Of a stretch of DNA of 62,152 nucleotides, positions 2,392-33,875 are shown piece by piece. Origin of the DNA: a virus (lineage: Duplodnaviria > Caudoviricetes). How positions within the stretch are numbered: position 1 is the first letter of the stretch; every line of letters begins with the position of its first letter. Made by a program: the position numbers and the translations under genes. Under the pieces are notes generated by a model. The model worked only from the letters and a program-made list of their open reading frames with translations. It was not told the DNA's origin and did not search any database. The stretch covers positions 1-62,152 of IMG/VR virus record IMGVR_UViG_3300035523_000151; one strand, 5' to 3'.

Positions 2392-3249
2392 ATGTCCAGT
2401 CTAGCGGAATTGTTGTGCTCTCAGGACTATCAGCAGCGAGTCGACACATGCCTGGAGGTCTTGGACGGTCGCCGTTCGGATCTCTCGCTTCGCGATTTGT
2501 CTGCGGAGGAATCTGCGCACATCCGTTATTTTCTGGCACATGCCTACCGGCAGTTGAATCGGCCGGCAGAGGCGTTGATGGTTTGCAATGAGGCTCTCCC
2601 CGACACCGTGTCTGTTCGGTGGCGCTCCATGATGCTGGAGTGTCGCGCCATGAGTCTGTATGATCTGGGGCGCCTGGACGAGATCCCCGGAGTGGTTGCC
2701 GAAGCCGAGCGGCTGGATTTGCCGGTGACGGTGAAAGGGCACCTGCTGGGGCTCCAAGGGTGCCTGTTGAGCCGCCAATTAGATCCAGCCGCCTTTTCCA
2801 CTTTTCAGGCAGCGGAAGATTTGTTCACGGATGCCAATCACGCCTATGGCGCCTCATGGGTGCAACGATCGGCGGCGGCCCTGGCCATCAAATTGAGCGG
2901 CCTGGACCGGGCTGATGAACTATTGTGCCGGGTGACGTTCCCGATGGTACTGCCAGAGGTCAGGCTGTTGCAAGCTCAGGTTCTGTATCTGCGTGGCCTC
3001 AAGTCAGAAAGCGCCGACCTGGTCAATCAGGTTATTTCCGGTTGCTGGGGCGAGCCAGCCGTCATTGATCGTGCCCGAGCGCACTACTTGCAGGCTGTGC
3101 GATTGGCCGATAATGGTCTGCTGGTTCAGGCCAGCGAGCAGGTCTATCAGGCGTTTGAGGAGCTCCGACTGCAACAGCGTTATGAGATTGACCTGACCGA
3201 CGCGTTAAATGCGCTGCGGTTCAAAATACGAAACTGGGGGGTTGCTTGA
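2392..3249 (+). CDS. TPR-repeat protein, putative RRNPP-like peptide receptor 1 (285 aa, no obvious HTH)
   Basis: All-helical TPR-like patterns (YFLAHAYRQLNRPAEAL, RAMSLYDLGRLDE, RARAHYLQA); RBS GGGGAG before ATG 2392; immediately followed by a small secreted-peptide gene. Confidence 0.7.
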   Translation: MSSLAELLCSQDYQQRVDTCLEVLDGRRSDLSLRDLSAEESAHIRYFLAHAYRQLNRPAEALMVCNEALPDTVSVRWRSMMLECRAMSLYDLGRLDEIPGVVAEAERLDLPVTVKGHLLGLQGCLLSRQLDPAAFSTFQAAEDLFTDANHAYGASWVQRSAAALAIKLSGLDRADELLCRVTFPMVLPEVRLLQAQVLYLRGLKSESADLVNQVISGCWGEPAVIDRARAHYLQAVRLADNGLLVQASEQVYQAFEELRLQQRYEIDLTDALNALRFKIRNWGVA

Positions 3250-3399
3250 ATGCGTTCGAAATGGTTTGTGATGGGAATCGCGGTATTGCTGGTGGCCTTG
3301 GCAATGTTCCTGCTTCCGGGCGTCACAGGTGCATGTACCGGTTCTAGCGGCGGCTCCGATCCCTGCCCGGACAGCGTTGTAATCTGGCCGCTCAAATAA
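3250..3399 (+). CDS. Small secreted propeptide 1 (49 aa): MRSKWFVMGIAVLLVALAMFLLPGVTGA-CTGSSGGSDPCPDSVVIWPLK
   Basis: Translated by hand; ATG directly after the TPR stop (TGA-ATG); basic n-region, hydrophobic h-region, TGA cleavage-like site; followed by a terminator. Confidence 0.75.
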   Translation: MRSKWFVMGIAVLLVALAMFLLPGVTGACTGSSGGSDPCPDSVVIWPLK

Positions 3400-3415
3400 G
3401 CAGTAGAGCGTATAG

Positions 3416-3443
3416 AAACCCCCGGTCAATCGACCGGGGGTTT
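3416..3443. terminator. Bidirectional terminator between peptide 1 and the repressor
   Basis: AAACCCCCGGTC-aatc-GACCGGGGGTTT perfect hairpin. Confidence 0.8.
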
Positions 3444-4094
3444 GCTATTGCTATTTCGTACGCCTAGCAGGACATCCATTTGCCGTTCCAAGAGTTCTGG
3501 CAGCAGTCGATTGTCAATTGCTCTGACGATGACCGCCAGGTAAGCGCCGGCCTCTGAATGTTCCAGTAGGCGTCTGAGATTTTCATCCGTGGGGCCTGGG
3601 TCGCCACGCAGCAGAAACTGCACTGGCACCTGGGCTCTTTCGTTCAGTTGGGTTAGTAGCCAAGGAGAGACATCGCTGCCGCTCAGTAGGGCGGTGATGT
3701 GTTCCTCGGTCGTTTGCAGTCGGGCGGCGATTGCCGACGCCGAGAACGCGGTAACCAACTGCTGCAAACACCAAACCGCCCGAGGGCGAGCCTCGAACTC
3801 CTGCAACTCCAGGATCTCGCCGGGCTTCAGTGTGCCAAAACGAGCACGCCAGAACCAATTCAAAGAGTCCGCCGGGCCAGCATCAGCGGGTGAATCATCG
3901 GCCGTCAAGGTGGCGAGGTCAACGCTTAATGCCCGGGCGATCTTGCTGAGAAGATCCAAACCGGGCTTGCTGACTCCGCCTTCGATTTCGCTTAGTCGCC
4001 CCTGCGAAATGCCTGCTGCTTTTGCCAAGGCGTTTTGGGATTTGAACCCCTTAACGACCCGCAAGGTGGCGATGCGTTGACCGATATTGCTCAT
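3426..4094 (-). CDS. Probable CI-like immunity repressor (N-terminal XRE HTH, second degenerate HTH, no S24 peptidase domain)
   Basis: IGQRIATLR...SQNALAKAAGISQGRLSEIEGG...LSKIARALSV; divergent from the early operon. Confidence 0.8.
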   Translation of the reverse strand: MSNIGQRIATLRVVKGFKSQNALAKAAGISQGRLSEIEGGVSKPGLDLLSKIARALSVDLATLTADDSPADAGPADSLNWFWRARFGTLKPGEILELQEFEARPRAVWCLQQLVTAFSASAIAARLQTTEEHITALLSGSDVSPWLLTQLNERAQVPVQFLLRGDPGPTDENLRRLLEHSEAGAYLAVIVRAIDNRLLPELLERQMDVLLGVRNSNSKPPVD

Positions 4095-4143
4095 CTGGAG
4101 GCCCCCAATCGAGTGCTGAGGTGAGTGTAGCACATTCCAGACT

Positions 4144-4159
4144 TATCGACAATCAGATA
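4144..4159. promoter_or_regulatory. Operator copy TATCGACAATCAGATA upstream of the repressor
   Basis: Matches the TATCGACAnTCnGATA copies at 2330 and 4232 (inverted). Confidence 0.65.
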
Positions 4160-4222
4160 GCCGCAGGAATCATTTGAGCTTGATCAATAACCACCAGGAA
4201 TCAAAAATCGGATAATAAACAG

Positions 4223-4251
4223 TTGAATTCCTATCCGAATGTCGATAAAAT
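4223..4251 (+). promoter_or_regulatory. Main early (PR-like) promoter with overlapping operator
   Basis: TTGAAT-N17-TAAAAT; operator TATCCGAATGTCGATA at 4232-4247. Confidence 0.7.
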
Positions 4252-4290
4252 GTGACTCAGAAACGGATAAGCCGGTCGGAGGTGACCCCG

Positions 4291-4482
4291 ATGCAGAATA
4301 ACCAGTTTCCGTTCCGACAGATCAACGATCTGCTGGCACAGGCCCATCAGGCCGCAGTCACCGTCGGCGATAAAGCTTTGGCTCTATCGATCCAGCGGGC
4401 ATGGGATAAGGCGGCCGATGCGGCTCGGGCGGAGGAGCAGCTGGCCGGGATCGCCCCAGATCAAGATGACCAGGCCGCCTAG
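4291..4482 (+). CDS. Hypothetical protein, first early gene
   Basis: GGAGGTG RBS before ATG; no HTH recognisable. Confidence 0.6.
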   Translation: MQNNQFPFRQINDLLAQAHQAAVTVGDKALALSIQRAWDKAADAARAEEQLAGIAPDQDDQAA

Positions 4483-4609
4483 GAGGTGCCTTGCGTGGAG
4501 CAAGATGATCGGCTTGCCTCTCGCATCGGAGCGGCAATTCTCGGGCGCACTGTCCCGCCTGACAGCGGACAGGCCCGTTCCGCATACGATGCCGCAGGAG
4601 GTGACCCTG

Positions 4610-4801
4610 GTGGGACAGACATACACGATGTTGGACCTGCGCCTCGGTCTCGTGCGGCATACGCCGGAGTGGCAGGCCGAGTTCAACCGGCGGGTTATCC
4701 CGATCCTGGTCCCGGTCGTGCGCCGGGAAATGGCCCGGGTGCTCGCTGAACGGTCCGCTCAGGCGGCTGCGGTAGCCCAACGTCCCGCAAGTGGTGAGTA
4801 A
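4610..4801 (+). CDS. Hypothetical protein
   Basis: AGGAGG RBS before GTG 4610 within ORF 4418-4801; start uncertain. Confidence 0.45.
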   Translation: MGQTYTMLDLRLGLVRHTPEWQAEFNRRVIPILVPVVRREMARVLAERSAQAAAVAQRPASGE

Positions 4802-4860
4802 CCACCCGGCCCCGCCGGGTGTGGACAGGCCCCAATCAAACCCTGAGGAGGTTTTGCACC

Positions 4861-5121
4861 ATGACCCAGAACCTCGTGATCCGGTTCCCGTTCCCGCTGC
4901 GGCGGGTGGACGAAGACGCCATCGACCAGCTCCAGCGTGAGTTCCAGGAGACGGCCGCCGCCGCCCGTATCGGCCCCGAGGGTGAGCCGCAGGTGCGGAC
5001 CTCCAGTGGGGAGGTCTACAACCTGACCGCCCTGCCGAAGTTCCAGGCCCGCCGCCTGGCCCGTACCATCACCCTGCAGCCTCTGCCGCCCGCCGGAGCC
5101 ATGGCGCTCCGGGCGGCGTAG
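4861..5121 (+). CDS. Hypothetical protein
   Basis: GAGGAGG RBS, ATG 4861. Confidence 0.6.
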   Translation: MTQNLVIRFPFPLRRVDEDAIDQLQREFQETAAAARIGPEGEPQVRTSSGEVYNLTALPKFQARRLARTITLQPLPPAGAMALRAA

Positions 5122-5124
5122 GGG

Positions 5125-5472
5125 GTGGGGAGGATGAACACCACCGCGAACCCCGCTCCGGTGAAACCGGCGTTCGGCCCGGCTCAGGCTCACGTTCTGG
5201 CCGCTGCGCTGGAGACGTTTGGCAAGATGCTGGATAGCGAAGTGATCCGAGCCGAGCTGTTCTATTACGGCAATTCTCGGGTGCACATGGGCAACGCCGG
5301 ATTCCGGCGGTTGTTCACCACGTACTGGCTGGAAGATCGCGGCCGTGGGTCGTATCCCTTCCAGGCATGTGCGCAGATTGGCCGCACCGTGTTCTACGCC
5401 CTGATCGAAGCCGACCAGGTACCTGAATGGCGGGCAGCAGCTTCGCCTGCACCCCAGGAGGCCACGGCATGA
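5125..5472 (+). CDS. Hypothetical protein
   Basis: Operon context; stop overlaps the next ATG. Confidence 0.55.
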   Translation: MGRMNTTANPAPVKPAFGPAQAHVLAAALETFGKMLDSEVIRAELFYYGNSRVHMGNAGFRRLFTTYWLEDRGRGSYPFQACAQIGRTVFYALIEADQVPEWRAAASPAPQEATA

Positions 5473-6515
5473 ACCTGATCTACATCACCGATACCCAGTG
5501 GCGGGGCACGTCGCCCCGCTCCCGACTGGACAACCTCCCGGCGACCCAGATCCTGAAGCTCCGCGAAACGCTGCGACTGGCCCGGGCGCACCGGGCCGCC
5601 GCCATCCTGCACGGCGGGGACCTGTTCGACCGGCCCGATACCGCCCCGGCCGTGGTGCTGGAGTACATGCAGGTTATCCGGGAAGAGGCGCCCTGCCCGA
5701 TCCTGGCCATCGCCGGGAACCATGACATCTTCGGCTACAACCCCAGTACGCTGCCGCAGACCATGCTGGGCTTGATGAACGGCGCCGGCCTGGTGCATGT
5801 GATTCAGCCCGGACACCCTCGGCTCCTGGAGCAAAACGGCCTGACCGTCCAGGTGACCGGCCAGCCGTTTCACGCCGAACTGGACCGCCGGGACCCGATG
5901 CTCGACTACATCGTCCACCCCGCCGACGACCCGTGCGACGCCCTGCACCGCCGGCAGTCCGGCACTGACTTCGCCATCCACCTGACCCACGGCATGCTCC
6001 TCGAAAAGCCCTTCCTGGATGGTGTCGCCCATACGCTGCTCTCCGATGTCTACAGCCCGGCCGTGACCCTGGCCGATGTGACATTCGGCGCTCACTATCA
6101 TCCGGGTTGGAGTCGGATTTACACCGACCGGCACGGCATGACCTGGTGCAACCCCGGCGCCCTCTCCCGGATGACCAACGACGTGAGCGACATGACCCGG
6201 CCGATTCAGGCCGTGCTGGTGACGCTCGAAAAGGGTCATACGCCCCGGCTGGAGTTCATCCCGCTGGAGTCTGCCCGGCCCGCCGACGAAGTCATCGACC
6301 GGACGATCCCGGCCGCCGAACTGGCCCGTGAGCAGGCCCAGCAGGATGTGCTGAACGGTCTCGGCGACACCAGCCGCCTGCAGGTGGTGGCCGTGGAGGC
6401 GATGCTGAACGAGATCGCCGGCAGCACCGGCGTCGCCCCGGAGGTTCGGGAAGAAGCGCTGAAACGCCTGGCCATCGCTCAGGCAGAGGCAGCGCGACGG
6501 GAGGCGGCAGCATGA
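5469..6515 (+). CDS. sbcD: SbcD/Mre11-like metallophosphoesterase nuclease
   Basis: TDTQ, GGDLFD, AGNHD, THG, GAHYH and NPGAL phosphoesterase motifs. Confidence 0.85.
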   Translation: MNLIYITDTQWRGTSPRSRLDNLPATQILKLRETLRLARAHRAAAILHGGDLFDRPDTAPAVVLEYMQVIREEAPCPILAIAGNHDIFGYNPSTLPQTMLGLMNGAGLVHVIQPGHPRLLEQNGLTVQVTGQPFHAELDRRDPMLDYIVHPADDPCDALHRRQSGTDFAIHLTHGMLLEKPFLDGVAHTLLSDVYSPAVTLADVTFGAHYHPGWSRIYTDRHGMTWCNPGALSRMTNDVSDMTRPIQAVLVTLEKGHTPRLEFIPLESARPADEVIDRTIPAAELAREQAQQDVLNGLGDTSRLQVVAVEAMLNEIAGSTGVAPEVREEALKRLAIAQAEAARREAAA

Positions 6516-7993
6516 AGCACATCGCCAAGTTGCGCCTGGAGAACTTCCAGAGCCACGTTGATTCGACGCTGGAGTTCAGCCCCGGCCTGAACATCCTGAC
6601 CGGCGAGAGCAACCACGGCAAATCGGCCGTGCTCCGGGCCCTGTACTGGCTCCTGTACAACCGGCCACAGGGCGTCGACCATGTCCGCTATGGCTGCCGG
6701 GAGTGCCGCGTGACGGTGACCATGAGCGACGGCGCTGAGATCGTCCGGGAACTGCGGCTGGCACCGAACGGCGCCGCCGCCCGGAACCGCTACACAGTCA
6801 CTCAGCCCGGCGGTGAACCGCAGGTATTCGAGGGGTTCGGCCAGCAGGGGATTCCGCAGCAGGTGACCCAGGCGCACGGCATGCCTATCGTGGCGCTGGA
6901 TGACGATCGGAAGCTGTCGCTCTCGTTCGGGTCGCAGCTCGAAGGCCCGTTTCTGCTCACCGAAACGGGCAGCATGCGAGCGGCGGCAATTGGCCGGTTG
7001 CTCGGGGCTCATGTGGTGGACGCCGCAATCCGAGACCTGCAGCAGGATCTGCAGCGAAACGGCGAGGCTGTCGCCACGCTGGAGGCCGACCTGACTGGCT
7101 ACGACGCCAAACTGGAGCCTTTCGCTGATCTGCCGCAGCAGGCGGCCCAACTGGAGGCGGCGGCGCAGATCATCGCAGCGATCCCGGCCCTGCAGCAGCG
7201 GGTCGACCAACTGCAGGGATTCCGGACCCGGCGAGATCAGATCGCCGCTGACGGAGCAGCGATCGCCGCCACCCTGACCGCACTGGCCGGCATCGATATG
7301 GCCGCCCTGCACCTGGCGCAAGCCAGGACGGCGCACGGTCGGGTGACGCTGCTCGGCACCTTCCGGGACCGCCGCCAGGTCATTCAGACCACGGCTGACC
7401 GCATCGCCGCCGTTCTGGCAGAGACGGCCGGCGTCGAAGCGGCGCAGGCGCACTTGACCGCCGCCCGAGTTGCCGAAGAACGGCGCAAGCAACTCGCCCC
7501 GTTGGTGTTCGAGACCGAACGCCTGCGACTGGCCAGGCTCAATATTGCGGACGCCCTGACTCAGACCGCCGGTGTGCCGGAGGCCGCCCAGGCCCTGACG
7601 GCCGCTCAGGCCGCCCACACCCGCATTCAGAACCTGGCCCCTCTCCGGGAGCGCCGGGACCGCATCCAGGCCGAGCGGGTCCGGATTGACCGGGCACTGG
7701 CCGAGACCGCCGGTGCCGAAGCCGCCGCAGTCACCCTCACGGCCGCCCGGCAGGTCCAGGACCGCATGAACCTCCTGGCCGGGCTCCGGGTGCGCCGGGA
7801 AACCCTCGCCGTGCAGCGCCAGCAAACCGAGGCGATCATCACACGGGCCAATGTCGACCTGGACACCCTGACCGCCGAATACGCTCAGACCCTGGTCGAA
7901 GCGAGAATCTGCCCGACCTGCGGGCAGTCAATTTCAGAAGCCGCGGCCGATGTCGCCGCCAATCGCAAAGGAGGACACGCCCATGCCGCTTGA
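6512..7993 (+). CDS. SbcC/Rad50-like ATPase, N-terminal half (Walker A, coiled coil, Zn hook)
   Basis: LENFQSH, GESNHGKS Walker A, Q-loop region, repeated coiled coil, C-terminal CPTCG. Confidence 0.85.
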   Translation: MKHIAKLRLENFQSHVDSTLEFSPGLNILTGESNHGKSAVLRALYWLLYNRPQGVDHVRYGCRECRVTVTMSDGAEIVRELRLAPNGAAARNRYTVTQPGGEPQVFEGFGQQGIPQQVTQAHGMPIVALDDDRKLSLSFGSQLEGPFLLTETGSMRAAAIGRLLGAHVVDAAIRDLQQDLQRNGEAVATLEADLTGYDAKLEPFADLPQQAAQLEAAAQIIAAIPALQQRVDQLQGFRTRRDQIAADGAAIAATLTALAGIDMAALHLAQARTAHGRVTLLGTFRDRRQVIQTTADRIAAVLAETAGVEAAQAHLTAARVAEERRKQLAPLVFETERLRLARLNIADALTQTAGVPEAAQALTAAQAAHTRIQNLAPLRERRDRIQAERVRIDRALAETAGAEAAAVTLTAARQVQDRMNLLAGLRVRRETLAVQRQQTEAIITRANVDLDTLTAEYAQTLVEARICPTCGQSISEAAADVAANRKGGHAHAA

Positions 7994-8240
7994 TGCAGCG
8001 ACCCGGATTGCCGAGTTGGAGAAAGCCATCGGTGCCAAACGCACGCTCCGTGATACGACACTCGGTCAGCAGACCGCGAACCAGACTGCCGCCGACCAAC
8101 TCGCCACAGACCTGACCGCCGCCGGCGTCACCGCCGAGACCCTGGACGAACAGTATCGGCAGGCCCAGGAAGACCGGGACAGTCAGATCATCGCCGGTGA
8201 GGCCGCCCTCAACCCGCCCGCCGTCCCTCAGGAGGCGTAA
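7983..8240 (+). CDS. Small coiled-coil protein between the SbcC halves
   Basis: AAGGAGG RBS; heptad-like sequence. Confidence 0.65.
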   Translation: MPLDAATRIAELEKAIGAKRTLRDTTLGQQTANQTAADQLATDLTAAGVTAETLDEQYRQAQEDRDSQIIAGEAALNPPAVPQEA

Positions 8241-8243
8241 GCG

Positions 8244-8903
8244 ATGCCCGCCACCTACCAGGGTCTCCTGACTGAACTGGGCCGGCAGCAGCGGTCCCTG
8301 GCCGCCCGACAGGGGCAGCGGGATCAGATCGCCGCCGACCGGACCGCCTGCGAAGCTCGTCTGACCGCCACGAAAGCGCAATCGCTGACGTACGACTTGG
8401 CCGCCACGGTGCTCCGCAAAACCGCCGATTACGCCCGGGCGCTCGCCAAAACGCAGTTGGAGAACCTCGTTTCCGCCTATCTGCAGGCCATCTACGGCCC
8501 GAGCTACTGGTTCGTCATCGACATGGTTGAACGAGCCGGCAGGGCCGAAGCAGAGTTCTTCGTCACATCGGGCTTCGGCCCGGACGGCGGCCTCCTCAAG
8601 ACCAGGATCGAAAGCAGCCGTGGCGGCGGCGTGGCGGACATCGTGTCCCTGGCACTCCGGGAAGCGATGTTGGAGACCTACCGCCCACAACTGGAGGGTG
8701 CTCTCGTCCTGGACGAGCCCCTCAAGATGCTGAGTGCGGAGTTCGTGCAGCCCGCTGTGCAGTTGTTAACGGCCATCGGCCAACGGTATGGCCGCCAGCA
8801 AATCATGGTCACGCACGACGGCTACCTCGCCCAGAGCGGAGCCGCCCACTTCCAGGTCACGCAGCCCGATGGCTGTACGAGTCTGGTGACCCGGATTGCC
8901 TGA
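8244..8903 (+). CDS. SbcC/Rad50-like ATPase, C-terminal half
   Basis: Signature-like SRGGG, Walker B LVLDEP, H-loop MVTH. Confidence 0.85.
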   Translation: MPATYQGLLTELGRQQRSLAARQGQRDQIAADRTACEARLTATKAQSLTYDLAATVLRKTADYARALAKTQLENLVSAYLQAIYGPSYWFVIDMVERAGRAEAEFFVTSGFGPDGGLLKTRIESSRGGGVADIVSLALREAMLETYRPQLEGALVLDEPLKMLSAEFVQPAVQLLTAIGQRYGRQQIMVTHDGYLAQSGAAHFQVTQPDGCTSLVTRIA

Positions 8904-9363
8904 CCTGGCATTCACCCCCACCCCCGAAGAAGCGGCCCGCGCCGCCAGTCTCGCCGCCGCCCTCGCTCGGTACCACAGCGACCCAACGCTCGGCCTGCCG
9001 GTGCTCGACCCCGCCGCAAACCGCTGGCATGACGCAATCTATGTCCCGCCCGCACTGATCAACGGATTCGCTCCGTGGCCGGAGGGCTACGTACCAGAGA
9101 CGACGAGCGGCCCGAAGGGCATGTCGATGGCGGAGTTTATCAACATCCACGGCCCGGTGAAAGCGCCACCGAGTCCGGGCAGCGCCGCCAAAGCGGCCCA
9201 ACTTCACGAAGAGGACAAACCGGCCATCACCGCCCGGGAGAAGAAGGCCGCCGAGAAGCGCCGCCTGGAGGCCGAACGGGCTGCCAGAAAGGCGGCTGAA
9301 GAGGCCGATAAACAGCGCCGCCAAGAGGCGCAAGGCAGCCTGCTCGGATTGATTGGAGGTTGA
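8896..9363 (+). CDS. Hypothetical protein
   Basis: Operon context; charged C-terminus. Confidence 0.5.
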   Translation: MPDLAFTPTPEEAARAASLAAALARYHSDPTLGLPVLDPAANRWHDAIYVPPALINGFAPWPEGYVPETTSGPKGMSMAEFINIHGPVKAPPSPGSAAKAAQLHEEDKPAITAREKKAAEKRRLEAERAARKAAEEADKQRRQEAQGSLLGLIGG

Positions 9364-9367
9364 ATAC

Positions 9368-9634: not shown

Positions 9635-9680
9635 TGAGTTTCCCGGCGCCCGGTGCGAGTCCGGCGCCCCATCGCAGCAT

Positions 9681-9792: not shown

Positions 9793-9820
9793 GGCCGCCA
9801 TGTCGACCCTCCTTCCCTTG

Positions 9821-18890: not shown

Positions 18891-20390
18891 TTGGCAGCAC
18901 CGATGCACCACCAGGTAAGTCTTTTTGACGAGTCGGCGCCGCCCCGCCCCAAAGTGGTCAAGAAACCCGCCACCAAACCCCGCAAGCCGTCCCGCGGCGA
19001 GTTCGAACCCATCGCTCCGCCAAACCTCGCCCAGGAGTCCGCCCTGTGGCTCACCGGTCAACGATCCATCGAGGCCCAGCGTGGCAAACGGTACGTCCCT
19101 GCTTCGGTCAAACACCCCGGCAAGATGCAGCCCGACGTGTGCGGGGCCATCATCGATACCTACACCGAACCCGGTTGGCACATCGTTGATGCCATGGGCG
19201 GCATCGGTACCACCGGGGTTGAGGGCGCCGAGCGGGGCCGCCATGTGACCTGCGTAGAGCTGGTGCGGCACTGGGCGAACGTCGCCTATGCCAACAGCGT
19301 TCGGACGGCGTACCGGGGTGCACCGGGCACCATGCGGGTCATTCACGGTGACGCCCGGCGACTGCCGGAGTTGCTGGCAGGGCTGATGGATGCGGCTGTG
19401 TTTTCACCGCCGTACGGGGAGGCGCTGGAGCAGCGCACCGGGAGGATGGAGGGGCGAGCAGAGAGGTTGCGGCAAGCGATTCAGGACGGCGGCCAACTGC
19501 GTGGCAACTGGCACTTTGGCGCCGGACAGCGAGCGATGATGGCCCCTCAGTACGATGCCGCCGTGATGTCCCCGCCCTTCGGCCCGACGCAGACCGGTCG
19601 GGGTATGGCGCTCACCGGCATCAACGGCGACGGCCGCCCGCCGGTTGAACGGGGCATCGGCGCTACATATGACGTAGCCGTGTTCTCTCCGCCCTACGGC
19701 CCTGCGGATACCGCGGGCGAGGACCTGACCCGCCGGACGAGTGCAGCGGTGGTGGACGAGAAGGGCCTCGGGTACCGCTGGAAGGGGTTCGGGCAACGGC
19801 ATTACGCTTCCACCAACCATGACGGTCCACAAGTCGACGCCGTAATCACCAGCCCCGCTTACGGCGACATTCGCCAGGACGGCGGCGACCACCAATTCGG
19901 CGAAGGCTCCGCGATGACGAACTACACTGGCGAAGCCCGGGTCAAGAAGGGCGCCCGCGACCGCACCAACGTCGGCAACCTCAAGTACGGCAGCATGGAC
20001 AAGGCCCTGATCATCGCTGCCCGGCTCACGGCAGGGGAGGCCATCCCCGAAGCCGAGTGGCCGGACATGCAGTACCTGGAGACGATGGTCCTCATCTACC
20101 GGGGCTGCTGGCAGGTGGTGCGGCAGGGCGGTCTCTGCATCCTGGTGCTGAAAGATTACAGGAGAGACAAACGCCGGGTCAACCTGGTGGGCGACACCAT
20201 CCGGCTCATGGAGGCTGTTGGCTGGCTGCTGCACGATCGGGCGCTGGCGCTCACCAGCAAAATCGACAACGGCCAGGTCATCAGCAAGGTGTCCCCGTTC
20301 GTCCGACTCAACGCTCGCAAGCCCGAGAAGAACGGCGGCAAAGTCCTCCTGCCCTGTGGCGAAGACATCCTCGTGTTCCGGAAGGAGTGA
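18891..20390 (+). CDS. Amino-type (N4-C/N6-A) DNA methyltransferase with four repeated SPPY-like motifs
   Basis: HPGKM, VDAMGGIGTT (motif I), GDAR; DAAVFSPPY / DAAVMSPPF / DVAVFSPPY / DAVITSPAY; C-terminal EDILVFRK. Confidence 0.8.
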   Translation: MAAPMHHQVSLFDESAPPRPKVVKKPATKPRKPSRGEFEPIAPPNLAQESALWLTGQRSIEAQRGKRYVPASVKHPGKMQPDVCGAIIDTYTEPGWHIVDAMGGIGTTGVEGAERGRHVTCVELVRHWANVAYANSVRTAYRGAPGTMRVIHGDARRLPELLAGLMDAAVFSPPYGEALEQRTGRMEGRAERLRQAIQDGGQLRGNWHFGAGQRAMMAPQYDAAVMSPPFGPTQTGRGMALTGINGDGRPPVERGIGATYDVAVFSPPYGPADTAGEDLTRRTSAAVVDEKGLGYRWKGFGQRHYASTNHDGPQVDAVITSPAYGDIRQDGGDHQFGEGSAMTNYTGEARVKKGARDRTNVGNLKYGSMDKALIIAARLTAGEAIPEAEWPDMQYLETMVLIYRGCWQVVRQGGLCILVLKDYRRDKRRVNLVGDTIRLMEAVGWLLHDRALALTSKIDNGQVISKVSPFVRLNARKPEKNGGKVLLPCGEDILVFRKE

Positions 20391-26495: not shown

Positions 26496-26500
26496 AGCCC

Positions 26501-26827: not shown

Positions 26828-26830
26828 AAC

Positions 26831-28021: not shown

Positions 28022-28040
28022 CAGCGAGGAGCGTGAAAGC

Positions 28041-29879
28041 ATGCATCGGGCACAGCAGCAGCGATTGCAGTGGCGCCCCGGCCAGGTGGAGGTCGAAATG
28101 CATCCGGCCGGCAGCGGCCTGAAACATCAGATAACCATCGCCGATCTGAGAGAGTTAGTCGTCGACAATTTCGCCGGCGGCGGTGGGGCCAGCACCGGGA
28201 TAGCACTGGCCATCGACCGCAGCGTCGACATCGCCATCAATCACGACCCGGCCGCGATTGCTATGCACCAGGCAAACCACCCAGACACCCTGCACCTGTG
28301 CGAGTCTGTCTGGGAGGTCAATCCCCGCAAAGTGACGCAAGGGCAACCTGTGGGCCTTGCGTGGTTCTCACCGGATTGCACTCATTTCAGCAAGGCGAAG
28401 GGCGGCAAGCCGGTCTCCAAGAAGATCAGGGGTCTTGCCTGGGTCGCTGTCCGCTGGGTGGCTCAGGTCCGCCCAAGGGTCATCATGATCGAGAACGTGG
28501 AGGAGTTCGTCACCTGGGGACCGCTGATCGCAGCACGTGATACGGAAACCGGAAGGCTACTCAAAAAGGTGTATGGGGAAGACGGCGAGAGCTGTGATAT
28601 AGTCGTTGCCGCTCCCGGTGAAGAGGTGCCTTTAGAACTTCGGGTTATGCACCCCGACCCGAAGCGCAAGGGCCAGACCTTCCGGGCATTCGTAAACAAG
28701 CTCCGGAAGTTCGGCTACCAGGTGGATTGGAAAGAGCTGCGGGCGTGTGATTACGGGGCGCCGACCATCCGCAAACGCTTTTTCCTCGTCGCCCGGTGCG
28801 ACGGCTGGCCGATCGTGTGGCCCGAGCCGACTCACGGCGACCCTAAGAGCAAGGCGGTGCAATCCGGAAAGCTCCAACCGTGGCGGACTGCCGCCGAAAT
28901 CATCGATTGGTCGATTCCATGCCCGTCGATCTTTGAGCGCAAGCGCCCGCTGAAGGAGGCAACGTTAAGGCGGATCGCCCGGGGCATTATGAAGTTCGTC
29001 ATAAACAACGCCACTCCATTCATCATCCCCGTCACGCACCACGGCTCTGATCGGGTAGCATCAATCGACGCACCATTCCCAACGATTACGGCGGCGCACC
29101 GCGGCGAGCACGCACTCATTACACCCGTTATCGACCGGCAGTTCACCCGCTCCACCGCCAACGCCGCAGACGAACCTTTGGGGACCATCACCGCCGGCGG
29201 CAGCGGAAAGGCCAACCTGGTTACAGCGTTTTTGACTCAGTATCATACCGAAGCTACCAACTCGGCAGTACGTGGCCAGACCGTGGACAAGCCGCTGCTG
29301 ACTCAGGACGCGTCGAATCGCTACGGCCTGGTAGCTGCATCTCTGGTCAAGCACTACGGCGGTGGCTATACAGGCGCCGGCAATGACCCGGGCGAGCCGT
29401 TATCCACGGTCACTGCAGTCGACCACAACGCCCTTGTCACCAGCCACATGATCAAGATGTACGGTACAAACGTGGGTCAAAGGACGGACGAGCCCCTGCA
29501 CACGATTACAGCCGGCGGCTTCCACCTGGGCGAGGTCAGGGCTTTCCTCCTGAAATATTACAGCACCAACGTTGGTCAGGAACTTGACGAACCTCTACAG
29601 ACTGTCACCACCAAACACCGCTTCGGACTCGTGACCGTCCATGGCGAGGATTACCAAATCATAGACATCGGCATGCGAATGCTCGAACCCCGCGAACTGT
29701 TCAAAGCAAACGGGTTTCCCGACGACTACATCATCGACGTGGAGATTAACGGCAAGAAGTGCTCGAAAGCATCCCAGGTTGCCCGGTGCGGCAACGCTGT
29801 GCCGCCGCATTTCGTCAAGGCGTTGGTAGAGGCGAACCTGCCGGAGATGTGTGGGCAGATTAGTGCGGCAGCGGTGTAA
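28041..29879 (+). CDS. C5-cytosine DNA methyltransferase
   Basis: DNFAGGGG, FSPDC (catalytic PC variant), IENV, YGAPTIRKR, RML.PREL, CGNAV. Confidence 0.92.
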   Translation: MHRAQQQRLQWRPGQVEVEMHPAGSGLKHQITIADLRELVVDNFAGGGGASTGIALAIDRSVDIAINHDPAAIAMHQANHPDTLHLCESVWEVNPRKVTQGQPVGLAWFSPDCTHFSKAKGGKPVSKKIRGLAWVAVRWVAQVRPRVIMIENVEEFVTWGPLIAARDTETGRLLKKVYGEDGESCDIVVAAPGEEVPLELRVMHPDPKRKGQTFRAFVNKLRKFGYQVDWKELRACDYGAPTIRKRFFLVARCDGWPIVWPEPTHGDPKSKAVQSGKLQPWRTAAEIIDWSIPCPSIFERKRPLKEATLRRIARGIMKFVINNATPFIIPVTHHGSDRVASIDAPFPTITAAHRGEHALITPVIDRQFTRSTANAADEPLGTITAGGSGKANLVTAFLTQYHTEATNSAVRGQTVDKPLLTQDASNRYGLVAASLVKHYGGGYTGAGNDPGEPLSTVTAVDHNALVTSHMIKMYGTNVGQRTDEPLHTITAGGFHLGEVRAFLLKYYSTNVGQELDEPLQTVTTKHRFGLVTVHGEDYQIIDIGMRMLEPRELFKANGFPDDYIIDVEINGKKCSKASQVARCGNAVPPHFVKALVEANLPEMCGQISAAAV

Positions 29880-29909
29880 GGTGACCCCCAACGCAAAACC
29901 CCAGGCCCG

Positions 29910-30341
29910 CTACTGCGGTACCTGGGGTTCGTCGCGTCTGCGCCTCGCCCTTACCTGAATCGACATGGCCCGCCGCCGCCACAGCGGTTCCTCAACCGGG
30001 ATGCCTGCCCGGCCGAATGCCTCTGCTTGGAGATCATCGGCCTTTGGGAACTCCGGGAAGTCCGCCGGCGTGTACCGCCCCGGATACAGCGTGGTCAGCA
30101 GGACGTACGGCGACCGGCGATACGCCCGGAGCAGGGCGCCCAGGCGGTAGGCGTCGAACCAGCGACGGCGGCAGGTGGCCGGGGAGGTTTGTGCCGTAAT
30201 GCCTTGCTCGGTCCAGATGGCTTCCAGGATGGCCCGGTCGCTGTCCGCTGCGCCCCAGAACCCGTTTGGCAGTTTCGGCCGGGCTCCGGTGTGGGTCTCG
30301 CGGAACGCGGTCACCGGATCGTCAATCTGCATCGCCATCAC
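29910..30341 (-). CDS. Hypothetical protein
   Basis: PNGFWG...WFDAYRLGALL...SPYVLLTTLYPGRY, a pattern seen in Firmicutes phage proteins; coupled to the upstream HTH gene. Confidence 0.55.
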   Translation of the reverse strand: MMAMQIDDPVTAFRETHTGARPKLPNGFWGAADSDRAILEAIWTEQGITAQTSPATCRRRWFDAYRLGALLRAYRRSPYVLLTTLYPGRYTPADFPEFPKADDLQAEAFGRAGIPVEEPLWRRRAMSIQVRARRRRDEPQVPQ

Positions 30342-30531
30342 CTGCCTGCTCCGGTTGAATCGGTTTAAACAGCCCCTCCAGCTCTTCGAGCTTGTACCGC
30401 TTATCGTCGGTCCCGTCCAGAGCGTAAGCGGTGATCTTCCCCGACCTGATGAGCCGGTAGAACGTGGACCGGGACACCTGCAGAAATTCCATCGCCTGAG
30501 ACGCAGTCAGCCATGATTGCGGCATGGGCAT
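30322..30531 (-). CDS. Excisionase-like HTH (MerR/HTH_17) protein
   Basis: WLTASQAMEFLQVSRSTFYRLIRSGKITAY; AGGAGG RBS. Confidence 0.8.
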   Translation of the reverse strand: MPMPQSWLTASQAMEFLQVSRSTFYRLIRSGKITAYALDGTDDKRYKLEELEGLFKPIQPEQAGDGDAD

Positions 30532-30595
30532 CCCCTCCTGTCGCTCTCATCATAGCAGGTTCACACTGTGCCGTAAAGTATTTTTGCGTGTCCTA

Positions 30596-30624
30596 TTGAC
30601 TCATCTGGAACAGTAAGATACAAT
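30596..30624 (+). promoter_or_regulatory. Strong sigmaA promoter for the accessory small-gene cluster
   Basis: TTGACT-N17-TACAAT. Confidence 0.75.
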
Positions 30625-30734
30625 AAGGCACAGAAGGACTCAAAGAGGTGCTGGCGATGAAGAAGCTGACGAAGGAGCAGATCATGGAGATCAAATCGAT
30701 CCAAGAGGTTTGATCAGAAAAGGAGTGGGCGGAA

Positions 30735-31232
30735 ATGACGAAGGCTGCAGAGATTACGGTGACTCTGCCCGATGGCTTCACCCTGCATGATGGTGTCGGC
30801 GAAAAGGACGGCCTGCCCGAGATCCACATTCACCATGGCGGCCAGTTCATCGCCCGCATGTTTTGGTTCAACGGCGGCCCGCTCGGATTTGCCTACGACG
30901 GCAAGCGGATTCTTGGCGGCGCTCACCGGCACGCTTGGCAGGAGACCGTAGACGACCTTATCCAGGCCTACCAGCCGTCGAAAACCGCCAAGCGTTTGCT
31001 CGATCGCCTCAACACCGCTTCTGAATCGTACTTCGCCACGCTGGAGCTTCCCGAATTCAAGCACCACTGGCGTAATACCGGCAGCGCCCGCATCGGCTCG
31101 GCCGACTACATCACCATCGAACTTCTCAACGGCACAATCCTCTCCTGGTGTGGGCGGGCTCCCTGGATTCACGAAACCTACGAAGCGCACAACGCCAAGG
31201 TCGAAGCTGCCATGAAGGCTGCGAAGGCCTGA
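30735..31232 (+). CDS. Hypothetical protein
   Basis: AAGGAG RBS. Confidence 0.65.
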   Translation: MTKAAEITVTLPDGFTLHDGVGEKDGLPEIHIHHGGQFIARMFWFNGGPLGFAYDGKRILGGAHRHAWQETVDDLIQAYQPSKTAKRLLDRLNTASESYFATLELPEFKHHWRNTGSARIGSADYITIELLNGTILSWCGRAPWIHETYEAHNAKVEAAMKAAKA

Positions 31233-31326
31233 CCCGGCCCTGCTAACGCCGGCACCTGCCAACGGGGAGGGCGGTCCCCTCCTCGGTGGTGGTCGGAGAT
31301 GGAGCAAGGAAAGGGGCTACACGCAA

Positions 31327-31530
31327 ATGGCACAAGGCAACCGCAGATTCAAGAGCGCCAAGGTCTACGGCAGCAGGTATGTCGTCATCGGCCAGATGGT
31401 CTACGACTGCACAGCCAGGTGGACCGGGCGAGTTCTGGAAATCGTGCAATTTCACGGCAGCCCGACCGTTTCGCTGAAGCTCGAAGGCCACAGCGGGTAC
31501 GTCCCCGCCCCCGACTGCGAAGTCATCTGA
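31327..31530 (+). CDS. Small hypothetical protein (SH3-like composition)
   Basis: AAGGGG RBS; beta-rich sequence. Confidence 0.5.
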   Translation: MAQGNRRFKSAKVYGSRYVVIGQMVYDCTARWTGRVLEIVQFHGSPTVSLKLEGHSGYVPAPDCEVI

Positions 31531-31568
31531 CTACCAGCCTTGCACCAGCACGAAGGAGGATGTGGAGA

Positions 31569-31787
31569 ATGACGGAGTTCACAGCGAAGGACCGGGCCTT
31601 CTGCGCGGCTCATGGTTCCGGGTTGCTTCTAGCTTCGGTGTGGCACCGCAATCAGATGATTGCGGGTCGGGTGGTGGATGCTACCGATGCCGAAGTCGCC
31701 ATCCGGTGGCCGGGCGGCGAACAGGTACTTAGCCGGTCCGACTTCGACCGGGAGACGGCGAAGGGCTACCTGGAACTGTTGGATTGA
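31569..31787 (+). CDS. Small hypothetical protein
   Basis: AAGGAGG RBS. Confidence 0.55.
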   Translation: MTEFTAKDRAFCAAHGSGLLLASVWHRNQMIAGRVVDATDAEVAIRWPGGEQVLSRSDFDRETAKGYLELLD

Positions 31788-31842
31788 TGGCTCGCCGACT
31801 TCGGGCCGAAACCGATGATCCGGCGGCACCGCCGGGGAGGTC

Positions 31843-31870
31843 GCAGGAAGTCACAAACACCGTATAGAAT
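31843..31870 (+). promoter_or_regulatory. Sigma-H-type promoter
   Basis: GCAGGAAGT-N12-ATAGAAT in an intergenic region. Confidence 0.55.
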
Positions 31871-31913
31871 CGTGTGACAACGAAGTTATCGAAAGCGAAG
31901 GGAGACGAGGCGA

Positions 31914-32102
31914 ATGTTGGAGATGCGTATTGCTCATCACGGGGTTTACTGTGGGTGGAGTTGGCGGATCATGGTCGACGGCGACTCCTGGACGCTGTTC
32001 ATCCACGGTGACGTGCAGAAGGAAATGAAGGTCGTTCCCGCCGGGACCGACAGACCATGGGTTGAGGCGTACATGGCCGAACAGGGTTACGGGCAGCGAT
32101 AA
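31914..32102 (+). CDS. Small hypothetical protein
   Basis: RBS-like GAGG upstream. Confidence 0.55.
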   Translation: MLEMRIAHHGVYCGWSWRIMVDGDSWTLFIHGDVQKEMKVVPAGTDRPWVEAYMAEQGYGQR

Positions 32103-32138
32103 CGCAGGCCGGAATTCGAACCCGAGGAGGGGTTTCAC

Positions 32139-32357
32139 GTGATGAAGAAGCAGGCTGAGGCCCTGATGCGCATCATCAACAAGGACATTCCCGGCGTGGA
32201 AACCACGGGCATGTCCAACGTAGAGGAGCGAGCAGCGAACGGCAGGCTCGTCTACAACTACGGCGTGAACTGTCAGGACACCGTGACCGGCGGGCAGTTC
32301 ACCGTCTGGACGCTGGATGACTGGCAGCGCCGGCAGAACCGGCCGCCGGTTGGATAG
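32139..32357 (+). CDS. Small hypothetical protein
   Basis: GAGGAGGGG RBS. Confidence 0.6.
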   Translation: MMKKQAEALMRIINKDIPGVETTGMSNVEERAANGRLVYNYGVNCQDTVTGGQFTVWTLDDWQRRQNRPPVG

Positions 32358-32372
32358 GAAGGAGGGGCCGTT

Positions 32373-32621
32373 ATGCCCGAAATCTTGGCCTTGAACGACG
32401 TGGTCCACCAACTCAAGGACGGCCGGTGGGTAGTAGCGAGGTGGGACGAAAAGGCGAATCAGTGGCAAGCGCCGATGACCGCCCAAGAGGCGAAGGCTAC
32501 CAACTGCAGCGCCTACTTTGCCAAGGGGCCAAATGGATTGGAAAGGCTCGGCTGCACATCCTACGCCCAACGCTCCGGGGCCGTGCGGCGAGCGAAGCAG
32601 ACATACTACGGCATCCAGTAG
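32373..32621 (+). CDS. Small hypothetical protein
   Basis: AAGGAGGGG RBS. Confidence 0.6.
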   Translation: MPEILALNDVVHQLKDGRWVVARWDEKANQWQAPMTAQEAKATNCSAYFAKGPNGLERLGCTSYAQRSGAVRRAKQTYYGIQ

Positions 32622-32626
32622 CCCAC

Positions 32627-32655
32627 TCCCCCGACCCTCCGGCCGGGGGATTTTT
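32627..32655 (+). terminator. Intrinsic terminator
   Basis: TCCCCCG...CGGGGGA followed by TTTTT. Confidence 0.7.
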
Positions 32656-32690
32656 CACGCCCTAAACACGCTCACAACTCTCCGCGCCCG

Positions 32691-32745
32691 TGTCGAACGG
32701 TGTCATGCATGCGGCATGGACAAATGCCATAAATTCCCTGATAAT
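32691..32745 (+). promoter_or_regulatory. Promoter of TPR cassette 2 with an upstream Spo0A-box-like site
   Basis: TGTCGAA at 32691-32697; TGGACA-N17-GATAAT at 32717-32745. Confidence 0.5.
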
Positions 32746-32776
32746 GGGGTTCGTCGGGAGCGAATATGATGGGGGG

Positions 32777-33649
32777 ATGACGGTGGAGGAAATGTTGGGC
32801 TACCTGGAGACCTGCCAGTACCCACAGGCCTGGGCGCAGTTCGTCCGGCTGCGCACCGCGGGGCCGGTGACGGCGAGTCTGCTGCTGCGGGGCAGTCATG
32901 CGGCATTCGGGCTGCGGGACCTGGCCGAGGCCCGCGAACTGGCGGAGGCGGCACTGGCGAAGTATCCGCACAGCGGTGAGCCGACCCGGCGGCTGGGGCA
33001 GATCCGTTTTCACCTGGCCATGGTGCGCCGGGAACTGGGCGATGCGGCCGGGGCGCTGACGCAATTCGACACGTACCTGACCGAACTGCCCACGCTCTAC
33101 CCGGACCTGGCCGGGACGGAGGGGAAGGCGCACTTCTACCGGGCGCTCTGCCTGCGCCAGCAGGAAGCCCTGGAGGCCGCTGCGGGGGCCTACGAGGAGG
33201 CCCTGCGGCTGATGCCCCCCGCTGATCCGCTGGCCGTCAAGGCCCGCCAGAACGCGGCGTGGGTGCTGTGCCTGCTGAACCGGGGCGAGGCGGCCCAGGA
33301 GCACCTGGCCGCGGCTCGCCCGCTCGCAGGCGACTCCATCGACCGGGCACACCAGACGCTGGGTGAGGCGTTCCTGGCACTCGTCACCGGAGACTCTGCG
33401 CAGGCGGCGGCGCTCTGCGAGCAGCTTTTCCGGACCTCGCACCAGGGGGAAATCACTGACACCGAGGTGCTGTCGCAGGCGGCGTGGCTGGCAGGTCGGG
33501 CCGCCATGGCGCAGCAGCGGTGGGAGGCGGCGGCGGGCCTCGCCGGTGTGGCCGTGACGTTCGCGGCCGATGCGCGGGACGCCCGGCTGATCAACGATGC
33601 TGCGGCGCTGCGGGCGCAGGTGCAGCTGCATCGGAGCGGGGTGCAATAG
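32777..33649 (+). CDS. TPR-repeat protein, putative RRNPP-like peptide receptor 2 (~290 aa, no obvious HTH)
   Basis: Clear TPRs (IRFHLAMVRRELGDAAGALTQF, AHFYRALCLRQQEALEAAAGAYEEAL, ARQNAAWVLCLLNRGEAAQEHL); start uncertain within 32777-32795. Confidence 0.75.
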   Translation: MTVEEMLGYLETCQYPQAWAQFVRLRTAGPVTASLLLRGSHAAFGLRDLAEARELAEAALAKYPHSGEPTRRLGQIRFHLAMVRRELGDAAGALTQFDTYLTELPTLYPDLAGTEGKAHFYRALCLRQQEALEAAAGAYEEALRLMPPADPLAVKARQNAAWVLCLLNRGEAAQEHLAAARPLAGDSIDRAHQTLGEAFLALVTGDSAQAAALCEQLFRTSHQGEITDTEVLSQAAWLAGRAAMAQQRWEAAAGLAGVAVTFAADARDARLINDAAALRAQVQLHRSGVQ

Positions 33650-33707
33650 CACCCCCGGCTCCGCGGGTCCGGTTTCGCCGGGAGATTAAATCGGGGGAGG
33701 GTTTACA

Positions 33708-33875
33708 TTGAAGAAGAAGCTTGCGGCTTTGGTCCTGGCCGTGGTTCTGGCGTTGGGCGTGGCTGGTGTGGCGTCGGCCGAACACGGCAACATCGGCGGC
33801 GTTGGTGTTGGTGGCGTCGTGACCACGCTGGAGCAGGGAACCGGCGGGCCGATTGGCGGCGTCGGGACCCGGTAG
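33708..33875 (+). CDS. Small secreted propeptide 2 (55 aa): MKKKLAALVLAVVLALGVAGVASA-EHGNIGGVGVGGVVTTLEQGTGGPIGGVGTR
   Basis: Translated by hand; GGGGAGGG RBS before TTG; textbook Sec signal peptide with ASA cleavage; internally repeated IGGVG. Confidence 0.85.
   Translation: MKKKLAALVLAVVLALGVAGVASAEHGNIGGVGVGGVVTTLEQGTGGPIGGVGTR

Follow-up and report, generated by a model that had tools for sequence, protein, structure and literature searches.

Does one prophage carry two separate channels of peptide communication, and with whom would each of them communicate? The question is raised by IMG/VR record IMGVR_UViG_3300035523_000151 (positions 1 to 62,152; the whole stretch analysed, 62,152 nucleotides with about 63% G+C, is called the window below), in which two gene pairs, each made up of a receptor-like protein and a small pre-peptide, lie about 30 kb apart: R1 and P1 (cassette 1) and R2 and P2 (cassette 2; the coordinates of all features are given in Table 1). 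The record belongs to the provirus class, with a CheckV completeness of 79%, and because it holds a single set of phage modules the window reads as one temperate phage or prophage. A preliminary description of this DNA had proposed one high-GC, non-Bacillus Bacillota phage with two receptor-peptide cassettes of dissimilar peptides, and that part of it was borne out: both cassettes are genuine, and their open reading frames (ORFs) are intact. The reading that we favour, with somewhat more confidence than doubt, is that the prophage carries two members of one lineage-specific RRNPP-like family, cassette 1 being part of the lysogeny switch and cassette 2 being derived from the host. A phage with two peptide systems is already known; the novelty is an undescribed RRNPP-like family without a helix-turn-helix (HTH) domain, present twice in one prophage.

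The two genes of each cassette lie on the same strand, with a gap of 0 nt between R1 and P1 and of 58 nt between R2 and P2. The longest ORF at R2 spans 32690-33649, and the start that matches all homologues is at 32777. The signal-peptide-like N-terminus of P1 ends in VTGA and is followed by a secreted part of 21 aa with two Cys, one Trp and the C-terminal sequence VVIWPLK; the canonical signal peptide of P2 ends in ASA and is followed by a Gly-rich secreted part of 31 aa, which starts with EHGNIGGVGV and shows IGGVG again near its end. The signature of RRNPP systems has five points, namely a small propeptide (10-100 aa), Sec export, a receptor of 250-500 aa, tetratricopeptide repeats (TPRs) and adjacency of the two genes (PMC10075063). 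All four proteins are within these size ranges (P1 49 aa, P2 55 aa; R1 285 aa, R2 290 aa), and the TPR build and the gene adjacency are found in both cassettes. Both pairs thus appear to have the RRNPP signature, Sec export being the point that is only predicted.

A profile of the R2 family detected paralogues of about 300 aa in 14 of the 210 genomes of the class, at 57 places (E<=1e-20), and all five genomes searched for the number of copies had between 1 and 15 per genome at E<=1e-5. Forty paralogue places were taken, of which 39 were scored (L052 had no single receptor ORF at its centre). At 34 of these 39 loci, a same-strand ORF of 33-56 aa with a signal-peptide pattern, preceded by a Shine-Dalgarno sequence, was found no more than 300 nt downstream of the receptor. 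Judged from these searches, the family is confined to, and expanded in, Symbiobacteriaceae-like genomes. Its secreted parts are short (9-31 aa) and diverse, and in several of them the opening 8-mer comes back as the closing one (ENGTIWPF...ENSTIWPF, EGGSIVPW...EGGSIVPW). Motif duplication has been described for phage Phr propeptides (PMC11343458). At five loci (L009, L028, L029, L034 and L027) the presumed mature motif stands twice in the propeptide, after the signal peptide and at the extreme C-terminus (e.g., SDHKPW...SDHKPW), a pattern which suggests that mature peptides of 6-8 residues may be released from both ends of the propeptide.

The relationship of R1 to this family is more distant. 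No BLASTP similarity was found between R1 and R2 (E 0.57), and R1 was an orphan in a word-indexed search; an exhaustive HMMER search retrieved 26 proteins at E<=0.001, about 20 of them with a length of 250-290 aa (the R1-homologue proteins P0006-P0015 are mostly from Logan assemblies). When 18 R1-type proteins were compared with four R2-type proteins by hhalign, the probability was 71%; when the R1-type profile was compared with 46 R2-family proteins, it was 98.4% (E 5e-15), with 269 collinear columns over the full length of both proteins. The best hits of the R1 profile in Symbiobacteriaceae genomes were cassette receptors at 7 of the 12 loci inspected, the rest being longer generic TPR proteins. 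R1 and R2 are probably distant homologues within one superfamily; their homology is probable rather than certain because TPR repeats attract each other in profile searches. The statement of the preliminary description that the receptors have no evident identity therefore stands for the pairwise comparison, but not at the level of profiles.

In a quick tree (a quick search of 64 rows, with support from the SH-like approximate likelihood ratio test, SH-aLRT, only), the R1 family formed a clade of its own (support 99), R2 was placed in a clade of 20 rows (97) next to L004 (91), and the receptors clustered by peptide type. Receptors and peptides of the family, on these sequences, co-diversify. A very divergent receptor on a long branch (L011:988-2009, in G004:C90) grouped with the R1 clade in the same tree; its peptide has 40 aa, with two Cys and a Trp in the secreted part (GCWPPNGSGC...), and recalls P1. 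This locus may link the R1 and R2 branches. The R1 profile matched 4 of the 210 class genomes at E<=1e-6, one of them strongly, and gave one weak match in 401 phylum-sampled genomes; the R2 and R1 alignments had no relative among IMG/VR viral contigs, the R1 alignment and the R1-homologue protein P0007 had none among JGI metagenome contigs, and neither R1 nor R2 matched the GenBank phages by tblastn.

Both receptors are predicted to be TPR superhelices of 15 helices each (pLDDT 93.6 for R2 and 94.8 for R1), although the Pfam TPR score of R1 (19.2 bits) is below the cut-off. No Pfam HTH family was found in R1 or R2 at E<=1, and the TPR-like helices start at residue 3. A place within the known RRNPP families, to which the preliminary description had looked, was not found by sequence in profile searches of solved chains (see below); they belong to a lineage-specific family instead. 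PHROGs gave no receptor hit below E 0.28 and no meaningful peptide hit, and in the ESM Atlas only generic TPR clusters were retrieved. By sequence, R1 and R2 are not members of Rap, NprR, PlcR or AimR. Structures of Rap-Phr pairs are available for the Bacillus phages phi3T and phi105 (8rtc, 8rsv and 8rte). Compared with these, the systems of the window show no detectable sequence relation and a different host lineage. R1 and R2 are also about 65-90 aa shorter than Rap, and since the structural alignment starts only at residue 47 (R1) or 49 (R2) of Rap Phi105, most of the N-terminal three-helix bundle of Rap, which carries its output function, is without a counterpart; in the models, the first helices of R1 and R2 could form a reduced cap.

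What is cassette 1 for? The R1/P1 pair is flanked by the integrase and HTH-89 genes on one side and by a convergent gene for a CI-like repressor on the other, and a 16-bp operator, TATCGACANTCNGATA, connects it with the switch. Exactly three perfect copies of this operator occur in the 62 kb, at 2330, 4144 and 4232, and when up to three mismatches are allowed there are 8 hits against 1.64 expected (none of 100 shuffles reached 8). The first copy is within the spacer of the R1 promoter, and those of the switch region overlap promoter-like sites at 4146-4173 and 4223-4251. Since the R1 promoter shares the operator of the CI/early switch, the protein that sets the switch should also set the expression of R1 and P1. 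The perfect inverted repeat between P1 and the CI-like gene is likely a bidirectional terminator, and the true start of the CI-like repressor is likely at 4094. Cassette 1 is thus plausibly tied to the lysis/lysogeny decision, a role which the preliminary description had proposed for one of the channels and for which the position in the lysogeny module, the switch operator in the promoter and the synteny in a second prophage (see below) all speak.

The region of cassette 1 has a G+C content of 0.57 against about 0.64 elsewhere (G+C at third codon positions, GC3, 0.66), as might be seen if one or both cassettes were inert passengers, decaying or silent in this prophage. This explanation seems to us very improbable. 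The adjoining CI-like gene has the same low GC3, so that the entire lysogeny module, and not cassette 1 alone, shares the low G+C; moreover, all four ORFs are intact and have Shine-Dalgarno sequences and promoter-like sites, and the predicted groove residues of R2 (see below) are conserved.

The only strong homologue of R1 in the reference genomes (E 7e-102, in 1 of the 210 genomes) is in G173:C49, within a prophage that is syntenic with the window. The order of genes there (locus L022) is serine recombinase, receptor, a signal-peptide ORF of 44 aa, CI-like repressor and early genes; the identities to the window are 50% for the integrase, 35% for the R1-type receptor and 41% for the CI-like repressor (E 2e-51), and several early genes are homologous to early genes of the window. 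A different site, of 14 nt, is common to the receptor promoter region and the switch region of G173:C49. The wiring of the switch thus appears to be conserved with a different operator sequence, as expected for different immunities. An R2-type cassette is likewise present in G173:C49, at a distance of about 30 kb from the R1-type one, and the presence of two cassettes in both prophages indicates a recurrent design. The R2-type peptide of G173:C49 is, however, of another type (EHGGEIPPIQ...), and its receptor is most closely related to a paralogue of that genome; the host seems to be the source from which the second slot is refilled.

The homologues of R2 (42-53% identity) are Symbiobacteriaceae proteins from metagenome-assembled genomes (MAGs), and all five of their loci have a small signal-peptide ORF downstream with the same core right after the cleavage site (EHGNIGGIG, EHDNIGGVG, ERGDIGGVG and similar). 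Four of these homologues (L003, L005, L006 and L007) share one conserved chromosomal neighbourhood of housekeeping genes, with a gene of the 2'-5' RNA ligase superfamily on one side and genes for a beta-eliminating lyase, thioredoxin, AspRS and HisRS on the other, which marks a core locus of the host. Judged from these loci, the phage has in R2/P2 a copy of a core chromosomal system of the host. Some details of the host loci may be added. In one MAG (L005), two IGGVG-type cassettes stand back to back in the conserved locus (6631-7665, minus strand, and 7980-9086, plus strand), a local duplication in which the second receptor is only about 30% identical to the phage R2, while the peptide core differs very little. 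A YfkB-like radical SAM gene (L004:9224-10351, plus strand) is found directly downstream of the cassette closest to R2 and beside none of the other cassettes. L007 is labelled Mycobacterium, but its locus is syntenic with those of Symbiobacteriaceae and its receptor groups with theirs in the tree, so the label looks wrong.

A complex of R2 and residues 25-55 of P2 was modelled from alignments of 9 (R2) and 7 (P2) sequences, together with three controls, and reached a score of 0.89 against 0.02 for the best control, a mark which 58 of 80 solved complexes and 2 of 110 mismatched pairs attain (rough counts, own alignments being used). Between the runs, at least 26% of contacts are shared, and the pLDDT of the partner is at least 45. 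The predicted contacts of P2 are residues 25-34, which are the conserved EHGNIGGVGV, and those of the receptor line its concave face. The host receptors with an IGGVG or IGGIG peptide core (L003, L004, L005a and L006) have 80-92% identity to R2 at the 25 predicted contact positions, as against 41-46% at the other positions; for L005b, which also has an IGGVG core, the values are 64% and 27%. Paralogues with other peptides, which were absent from the modelling alignment, are 16-48% identical to R2 at these positions. The pattern is that expected of co-evolution between cognate receptors and peptides, and on the model the phage R2/P2 and the host system could cross-react.

The preliminary description had proposed two orthogonal channels with two density thresholds, one for lysis/lysogeny and the other for accessory genes or host sporulation. 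There is something to be said for such a scheme, taken as one of two private phage-phage channels: the peptide cores differ (VVIWP and IGGVG), only 24% of the predicted groove positions of R2 are identical in R1, the operons and promoters are separate, and the related prophage also keeps two cassettes. Nevertheless, we think it quite unlikely, because the core of cassette 2 and its nearly identical predicted groove residues match those of chromosomal host systems, which makes cross-talk with the host more likely than isolation, and because both operons carry the same host-type box (see below) and so have at least one input in common.

As a transcription unit, cassette 2 appears to be insulated, at the junction of the two arms of the phage genome and beside the lysis genes: a terminator-like hairpin separates it from the upstream genes, and the endolysin gene, with which the late arm begins, places it at the junction of early and late arms. 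The operon that starts at its promoter-like site includes, after R2 and P2, a gene for a protein with two HTH repeats. This dual-HTH protein is possibly the output partner of R2; no counterpart of its gene was found beside the host cassettes in the host loci inspected.

The host-type box is the heptamer TGTCGAA, the consensus of the 0A box bound by Spo0A in Bacillus and Clostridioides; phosphorylated Spo0A (Spo0A~P) binds as dimers to tandem boxes 3 bp apart (PMC2731898, PMC3485338), and the phages phi29 and Nf make use of 0A boxes (PMC2731898). Genes with a Spo0A_C domain were found in all five related genomes. As the preliminary description had noted, the heptamer is present upstream of both cassettes, at 2172 and 32691. 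In the whole window it is not significantly enriched (8 copies, 5.8 expected). Upstream of receptors, by contrast, a forward TGTCGAA was found within 250 nt in 13 of 48 family members, against 1.1 expected (binomial 4e-11) and compared with 2 of the 167 other genes at these loci (Fisher 6e-8), although these probabilities overstate independence because the 48 regions are paralogues, which tells against our reading. The 48 upstream regions are those of the two receptors of the window, the L022 receptor and 45 family receptors of the alignment; left out were L043, L052, L059, L062, L063, L064, the fragment L012 and the generic long TPR genes (no small ORF had been detected at L043, L059, L062, L063 and L064, and a single receptor ORF was lacking at L052). 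Counted together, the hexamer and its complement reach 3.0 per kb in the 48 regions and 0.65 per kb in all loci. The extended form of the box is TGTCGAACG(A/G), which mostly precedes the start by 75-140 nt and a -35-like TTGAC by 20-45 nt, often with a second copy 10-12 nt away.

At R1 the box is part of the palindrome TGTCGA-N6-TCGACA, of which there is one match in the window (0.03 expected; 3 of 100 shuffles reach 1); like palindromes occur upstream of the receptors at L022, L024, L037, L041 and L054. With its position at -220, the R1 palindrome is also near the divergent HTH-89 gene. On these sequences, a link of the cassettes to the host regulator of sporulation and stationary phase is reasonable. 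TGTCGAA was also considered as a phage operator common to both cassettes and was rejected, the phage operator TATCGACANTCNGATA having no copy near cassette 2. As in phi29 and Nf, perfect TGTCGAA boxes are found by phage promoters and point to a tie with the host sporulation regulator; in these lytic phages, early and late promoters and replication are under the control of the boxes, whereas here the predicted boxes stand upstream of receptor-peptide operons and are common to the host paralogues (PMC2731898). Among the early genes of G173:C49, a stand-alone Spo0A C-terminal DNA-binding domain of 111 aa is encoded (L025:5505-5840, minus strand, which is G173:C49:19505-19840; Pfam Spo0A_C 64.6 bits, cut-off 25). 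A Spo0A domain without the receiver can bind 0A boxes without phosphorylation (PMC3485338), so the phage of G173:C49 may drive or block promoters with 0A boxes, those of its own cassettes included. No counterpart of this domain was found by the Pfam-type domain search of the window.

How might the two cassettes work? Under the reading of two members of one RRNPP-like family, each pair would consist of a TPR-only receptor of about 290 aa and a downstream pre-peptide exported through Sec, the short secreted part of which would be the ligand, and both pairs would work in the manner of Rap-Phr, with the re-imported peptide bound in the groove of its receptor. Upon infection or induction, R1 and P1 would be made, and P1 would be exported, trimmed, re-imported by an oligopeptide permease and bound by R1 (the host relatives have 11-16 SBP_bac_5 genes each, in 4 of 4 genomes, which speaks for import capacity only). 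R1 lacks a DNA-binding domain and would therefore have to work through contact with another protein. Its target would most likely be the CI-like repressor, a protein of the switch, which would make R1 a peptide-sensitive anti-repressor; the Rap protein of pLS20, an anti-repressor acting on conjugation (PMC7430634), is a working analogy for this rather than an established homologue. The outcome would be a density-dependent lysis/lysogeny decision analogous to arbitrium. Through cassette 2 the prophage would sense the density signal of its host, add to that signal, or both, and the output may run through the co-transcribed dual-HTH protein. Host Spo0A~P would modulate both operons through the 0A boxes, with the nutritional and developmental state of the host as a common input.

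Several points weigh against this reading. The fold is compatible with an RRNPP receptor but is not diagnostic, since unrelated TPR proteins are as close: in Foldseek searches generic TPR proteins rank first, and Rap of phi3T, Rap of pLS20 and NprR lower; in the structural alignment of R2, the Z scores are 23.1 for LGN, 22.1 for Pins, 21.1 for Rap Phi105 (rmsd 3.8, 277 residues aligned), 20.8 for NprR and 20.1 for Rap of pLS20, and the generic TPR proteins LGN, Pins, APPBP2 and separase differ from the RRNPP receptors by no more than 1-2 Z units. When profiles of R1 and of the R2 family were searched against all solved chains, only generic TPR proteins were found and no significant Rap, NprR, PlcR or AimR (RapH had E 0.19). 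The basic N-terminus, hydrophobic core and A-x-A-type site of P1 and P2 were recognised by eye and with a simple pattern. In the R2 family the ligand-like segment follows directly after the signal peptide, whereas in Phr and AimP it is usually C-terminal. The good score of the R2/P2 model may in part reflect likeness to the solved Rap-Phr and NprR-NprX complexes, and its contact residues come from a model that used conservation itself. Part of the profile similarity between R1 and R2 could be similarity of repeats. No BLASTP alignment was obtained between the secreted parts of P1 and of the L022 peptide, the two R1-type loci inspected. The extended box TGTCGAACG could be the site of some other regulator and not of Spo0A, the matching system in the prophage's own host is deduced from relatives of that host, and the target of R1 is a guess, the receptors having no recognisable output domain.

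Some of these points would also suit an explanation outside quorum sensing, in which the exported peptides act outside the cell (as bacteriocin-like, cannibalism, surface or spore-related factors) and the TPR protein is a chaperone, export regulator or immunity factor that binds the precursor before export. A generic TPR fold without an output domain would fit, control by 0A boxes is also compatible with secreted factors of the stationary phase, and binding of the precursor is possible because cleavage of the signal peptide would take place right where the predicted contact segment starts. We consider this explanation rather unlikely, however, in view of secreted parts of only 9-31 aa with a diversity like that of pherotypes and with whole motifs often duplicated as in Phr propeptides (PMC11343458), of receptors that co-diversify with their peptides, of up to 15 copies per genome, and of the position of cassette 1 inside the lysogeny switch.

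Compared with arbitrium (AimR-AimP-AimX), R1 has no N-terminal HTH and no sequence relation to AimR, and no AimX-like gene is evident downstream, where P1 is followed by the terminator hairpin and the convergent CI-like gene; like AimR, R1/P1 stands beside lysogeny genes, and this in two prophages, but R2/P2 does not. Phage communication by peptides is, to our knowledge, known almost only from Bacillus and close relatives, with receptors that bind DNA (AimR) or belong to the Rap family. The same logic in a distant, spore-forming lineage of high G+C would widen the taxonomic and mechanistic range of peptide signalling between phages and hosts. It would provide a test case for an HTH-less receptor that controls a CI-type switch, and another for a prophage that eavesdrops on the quorum signals of its host by means of captured host receptors; Spo0A is pointed to as a common input, and about 45 receptor-peptide pairs with visible co-variation form a catalogue for studies of specificity.

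With regard to two systems in one phage, phi3T has two peptide systems (PMC8027211), and 'multilingual' elements, among them six Bacillus phage genomes and 76 Bacillus prophages, are described with nearly all hosts being Bacillus (PMC10075063). The prophage of the window is like these elements in having two or more receptor-peptide systems; it differs from them in its Symbiobacteriaceae-like host, in that both of its systems come from a family which the main text of that source does not name, and in that both lack a DNA-binding domain. The word 'Symbiobacter' is also absent from this main text, with the supplementary tables of candidate systems as the part of the source that may bear on novelty (PMC10075063). 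In the literature, nothing was found that links Symbiobacteri* with RRNPP.

A more far-reaching account can be put forward as a tentative suggestion about which we are on balance doubtful. A lineage of Symbiobacteriaceae prophages would have built its own arbitrium-like device from a DNA-binding-free, TPR-only anti-repressor receptor under the switch operator and filled a second slot with captured host receptors, the host pherotype not being the same in the two prophages; the prophage would then integrate phage density, host density and Spo0A state, and the family, which has as many as 15 copies in a genome, would form a second HTH-less RRNPP-like branch beside Rap, in a phylum-level outlier of Bacillota.

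Table 1. Features of cassettes 1 and 2 and of their surroundings in the window
Feature	Position	Strand	Remarks
R1, cytoplasmic TPR-only receptor-like protein without HTH	2392..3249	+	Shine-Dalgarno GGGGAG 8 nt upstream
P1, pre-peptide	3250..3399	+	ATG directly after the TGA of R1; GGGGGG 8 nt upstream
R2, cytoplasmic TPR-only receptor-like protein	32777..33649	+	Pfam TPR_2 29.8 bits (cut-off 27)
P2, pre-peptide	33708..33875	+	TTG start; strong Shine-Dalgarno GGGGGAGGG upstream
Promoter-like site TTGACG-17-TATGCT of the R1-P1 operon	2321..2349	+	9/12 matches
Operator copy TATCGACAGTCCGATA within the R1 promoter spacer	2330..2345	+	Weaker copy 2362-2377 (-)
Palindrome TGTCGA-N6-TCGACA	2172..2189	.	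Perfect 0A-box 7-mer 2172-2178 and a facing imperfect one; 220 nt upstream of R1
Inverted repeat, perfect over 12 bp (loop of 4 nt), between the convergent genes of P1 and the CI-like repressor	3416..3443	.	
CI-like repressor, N-terminal HTH_3 and C-terminal domain of ~150 aa	3426..4133	-	Pfam, PHROGs
Switch region between CI-like gene and early genes	4144..4247	.	Exact operators 4144-4159 (+) and 4232-4247 (-); weak 4199-4214
Terminator-like hairpin followed by T run	32635..32649	+	Upstream of cassette 2
Perfect 0A-box 7-mer TGTCGAA, extended TGTCGAACGG	32691..32697	+	86 nt before the start of R2; 19 nt upstream of the -35
Promoter-like site TGGACA-17-GATAAT of the R2-P2-HTH operon	32717..32745	+	10/12 matches; 1 site vs 0.2 expected in shuffles
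Two-HTH-repeat protein, 186 aa	33903..34463	+	27 nt after P2; strong Shine-Dalgarno; Pfam HTH_31, HTH_3 weak
Large serine recombinase (integrase), left end of the prophage	1..1743	-	Reaches window base 1; Pfam Resolvase, Recombinase, Zn_ribbon_recom
HTH_3 (Xre/Cro-type) protein (HTH-89), 89 aa	1845..2114	-	Divergent from cassette 1; Pfam HTH_3 31.8 bits
Endolysin (Amidase_2), first gene of the late arm	34997..35695	-	Pfam, PHROGs

The remainder of the window consists of two convergent arms. The arm on the plus strand has modules for SbcCD, a DnaB-type helicase and DNA methyltransferases, and that on the minus strand leads from the endolysin through the tape measure and the protease/capsid genes to the large terminase (TerL). 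Within the late arm, the G+C content dips to 0.57-0.60 between 36000 and 40000, and in this stretch are a T5orf172/MUG113-domain gene (36228-37025, minus strand) and a gene whose product has a signal peptide and a Cu_amine_oxidN1 domain (37773-38303, plus strand), both of which look like inserted accessory genes; a Cu_amine_oxidN1-like ORF was seen, by eye only, near the R2-type cassette of the related prophage (L024:210-1016). The early arm has two large DNA methyltransferase genes on the plus strand (18891-20390 and 28041-29879), the first of which has a counterpart in the related prophage (56% identity).

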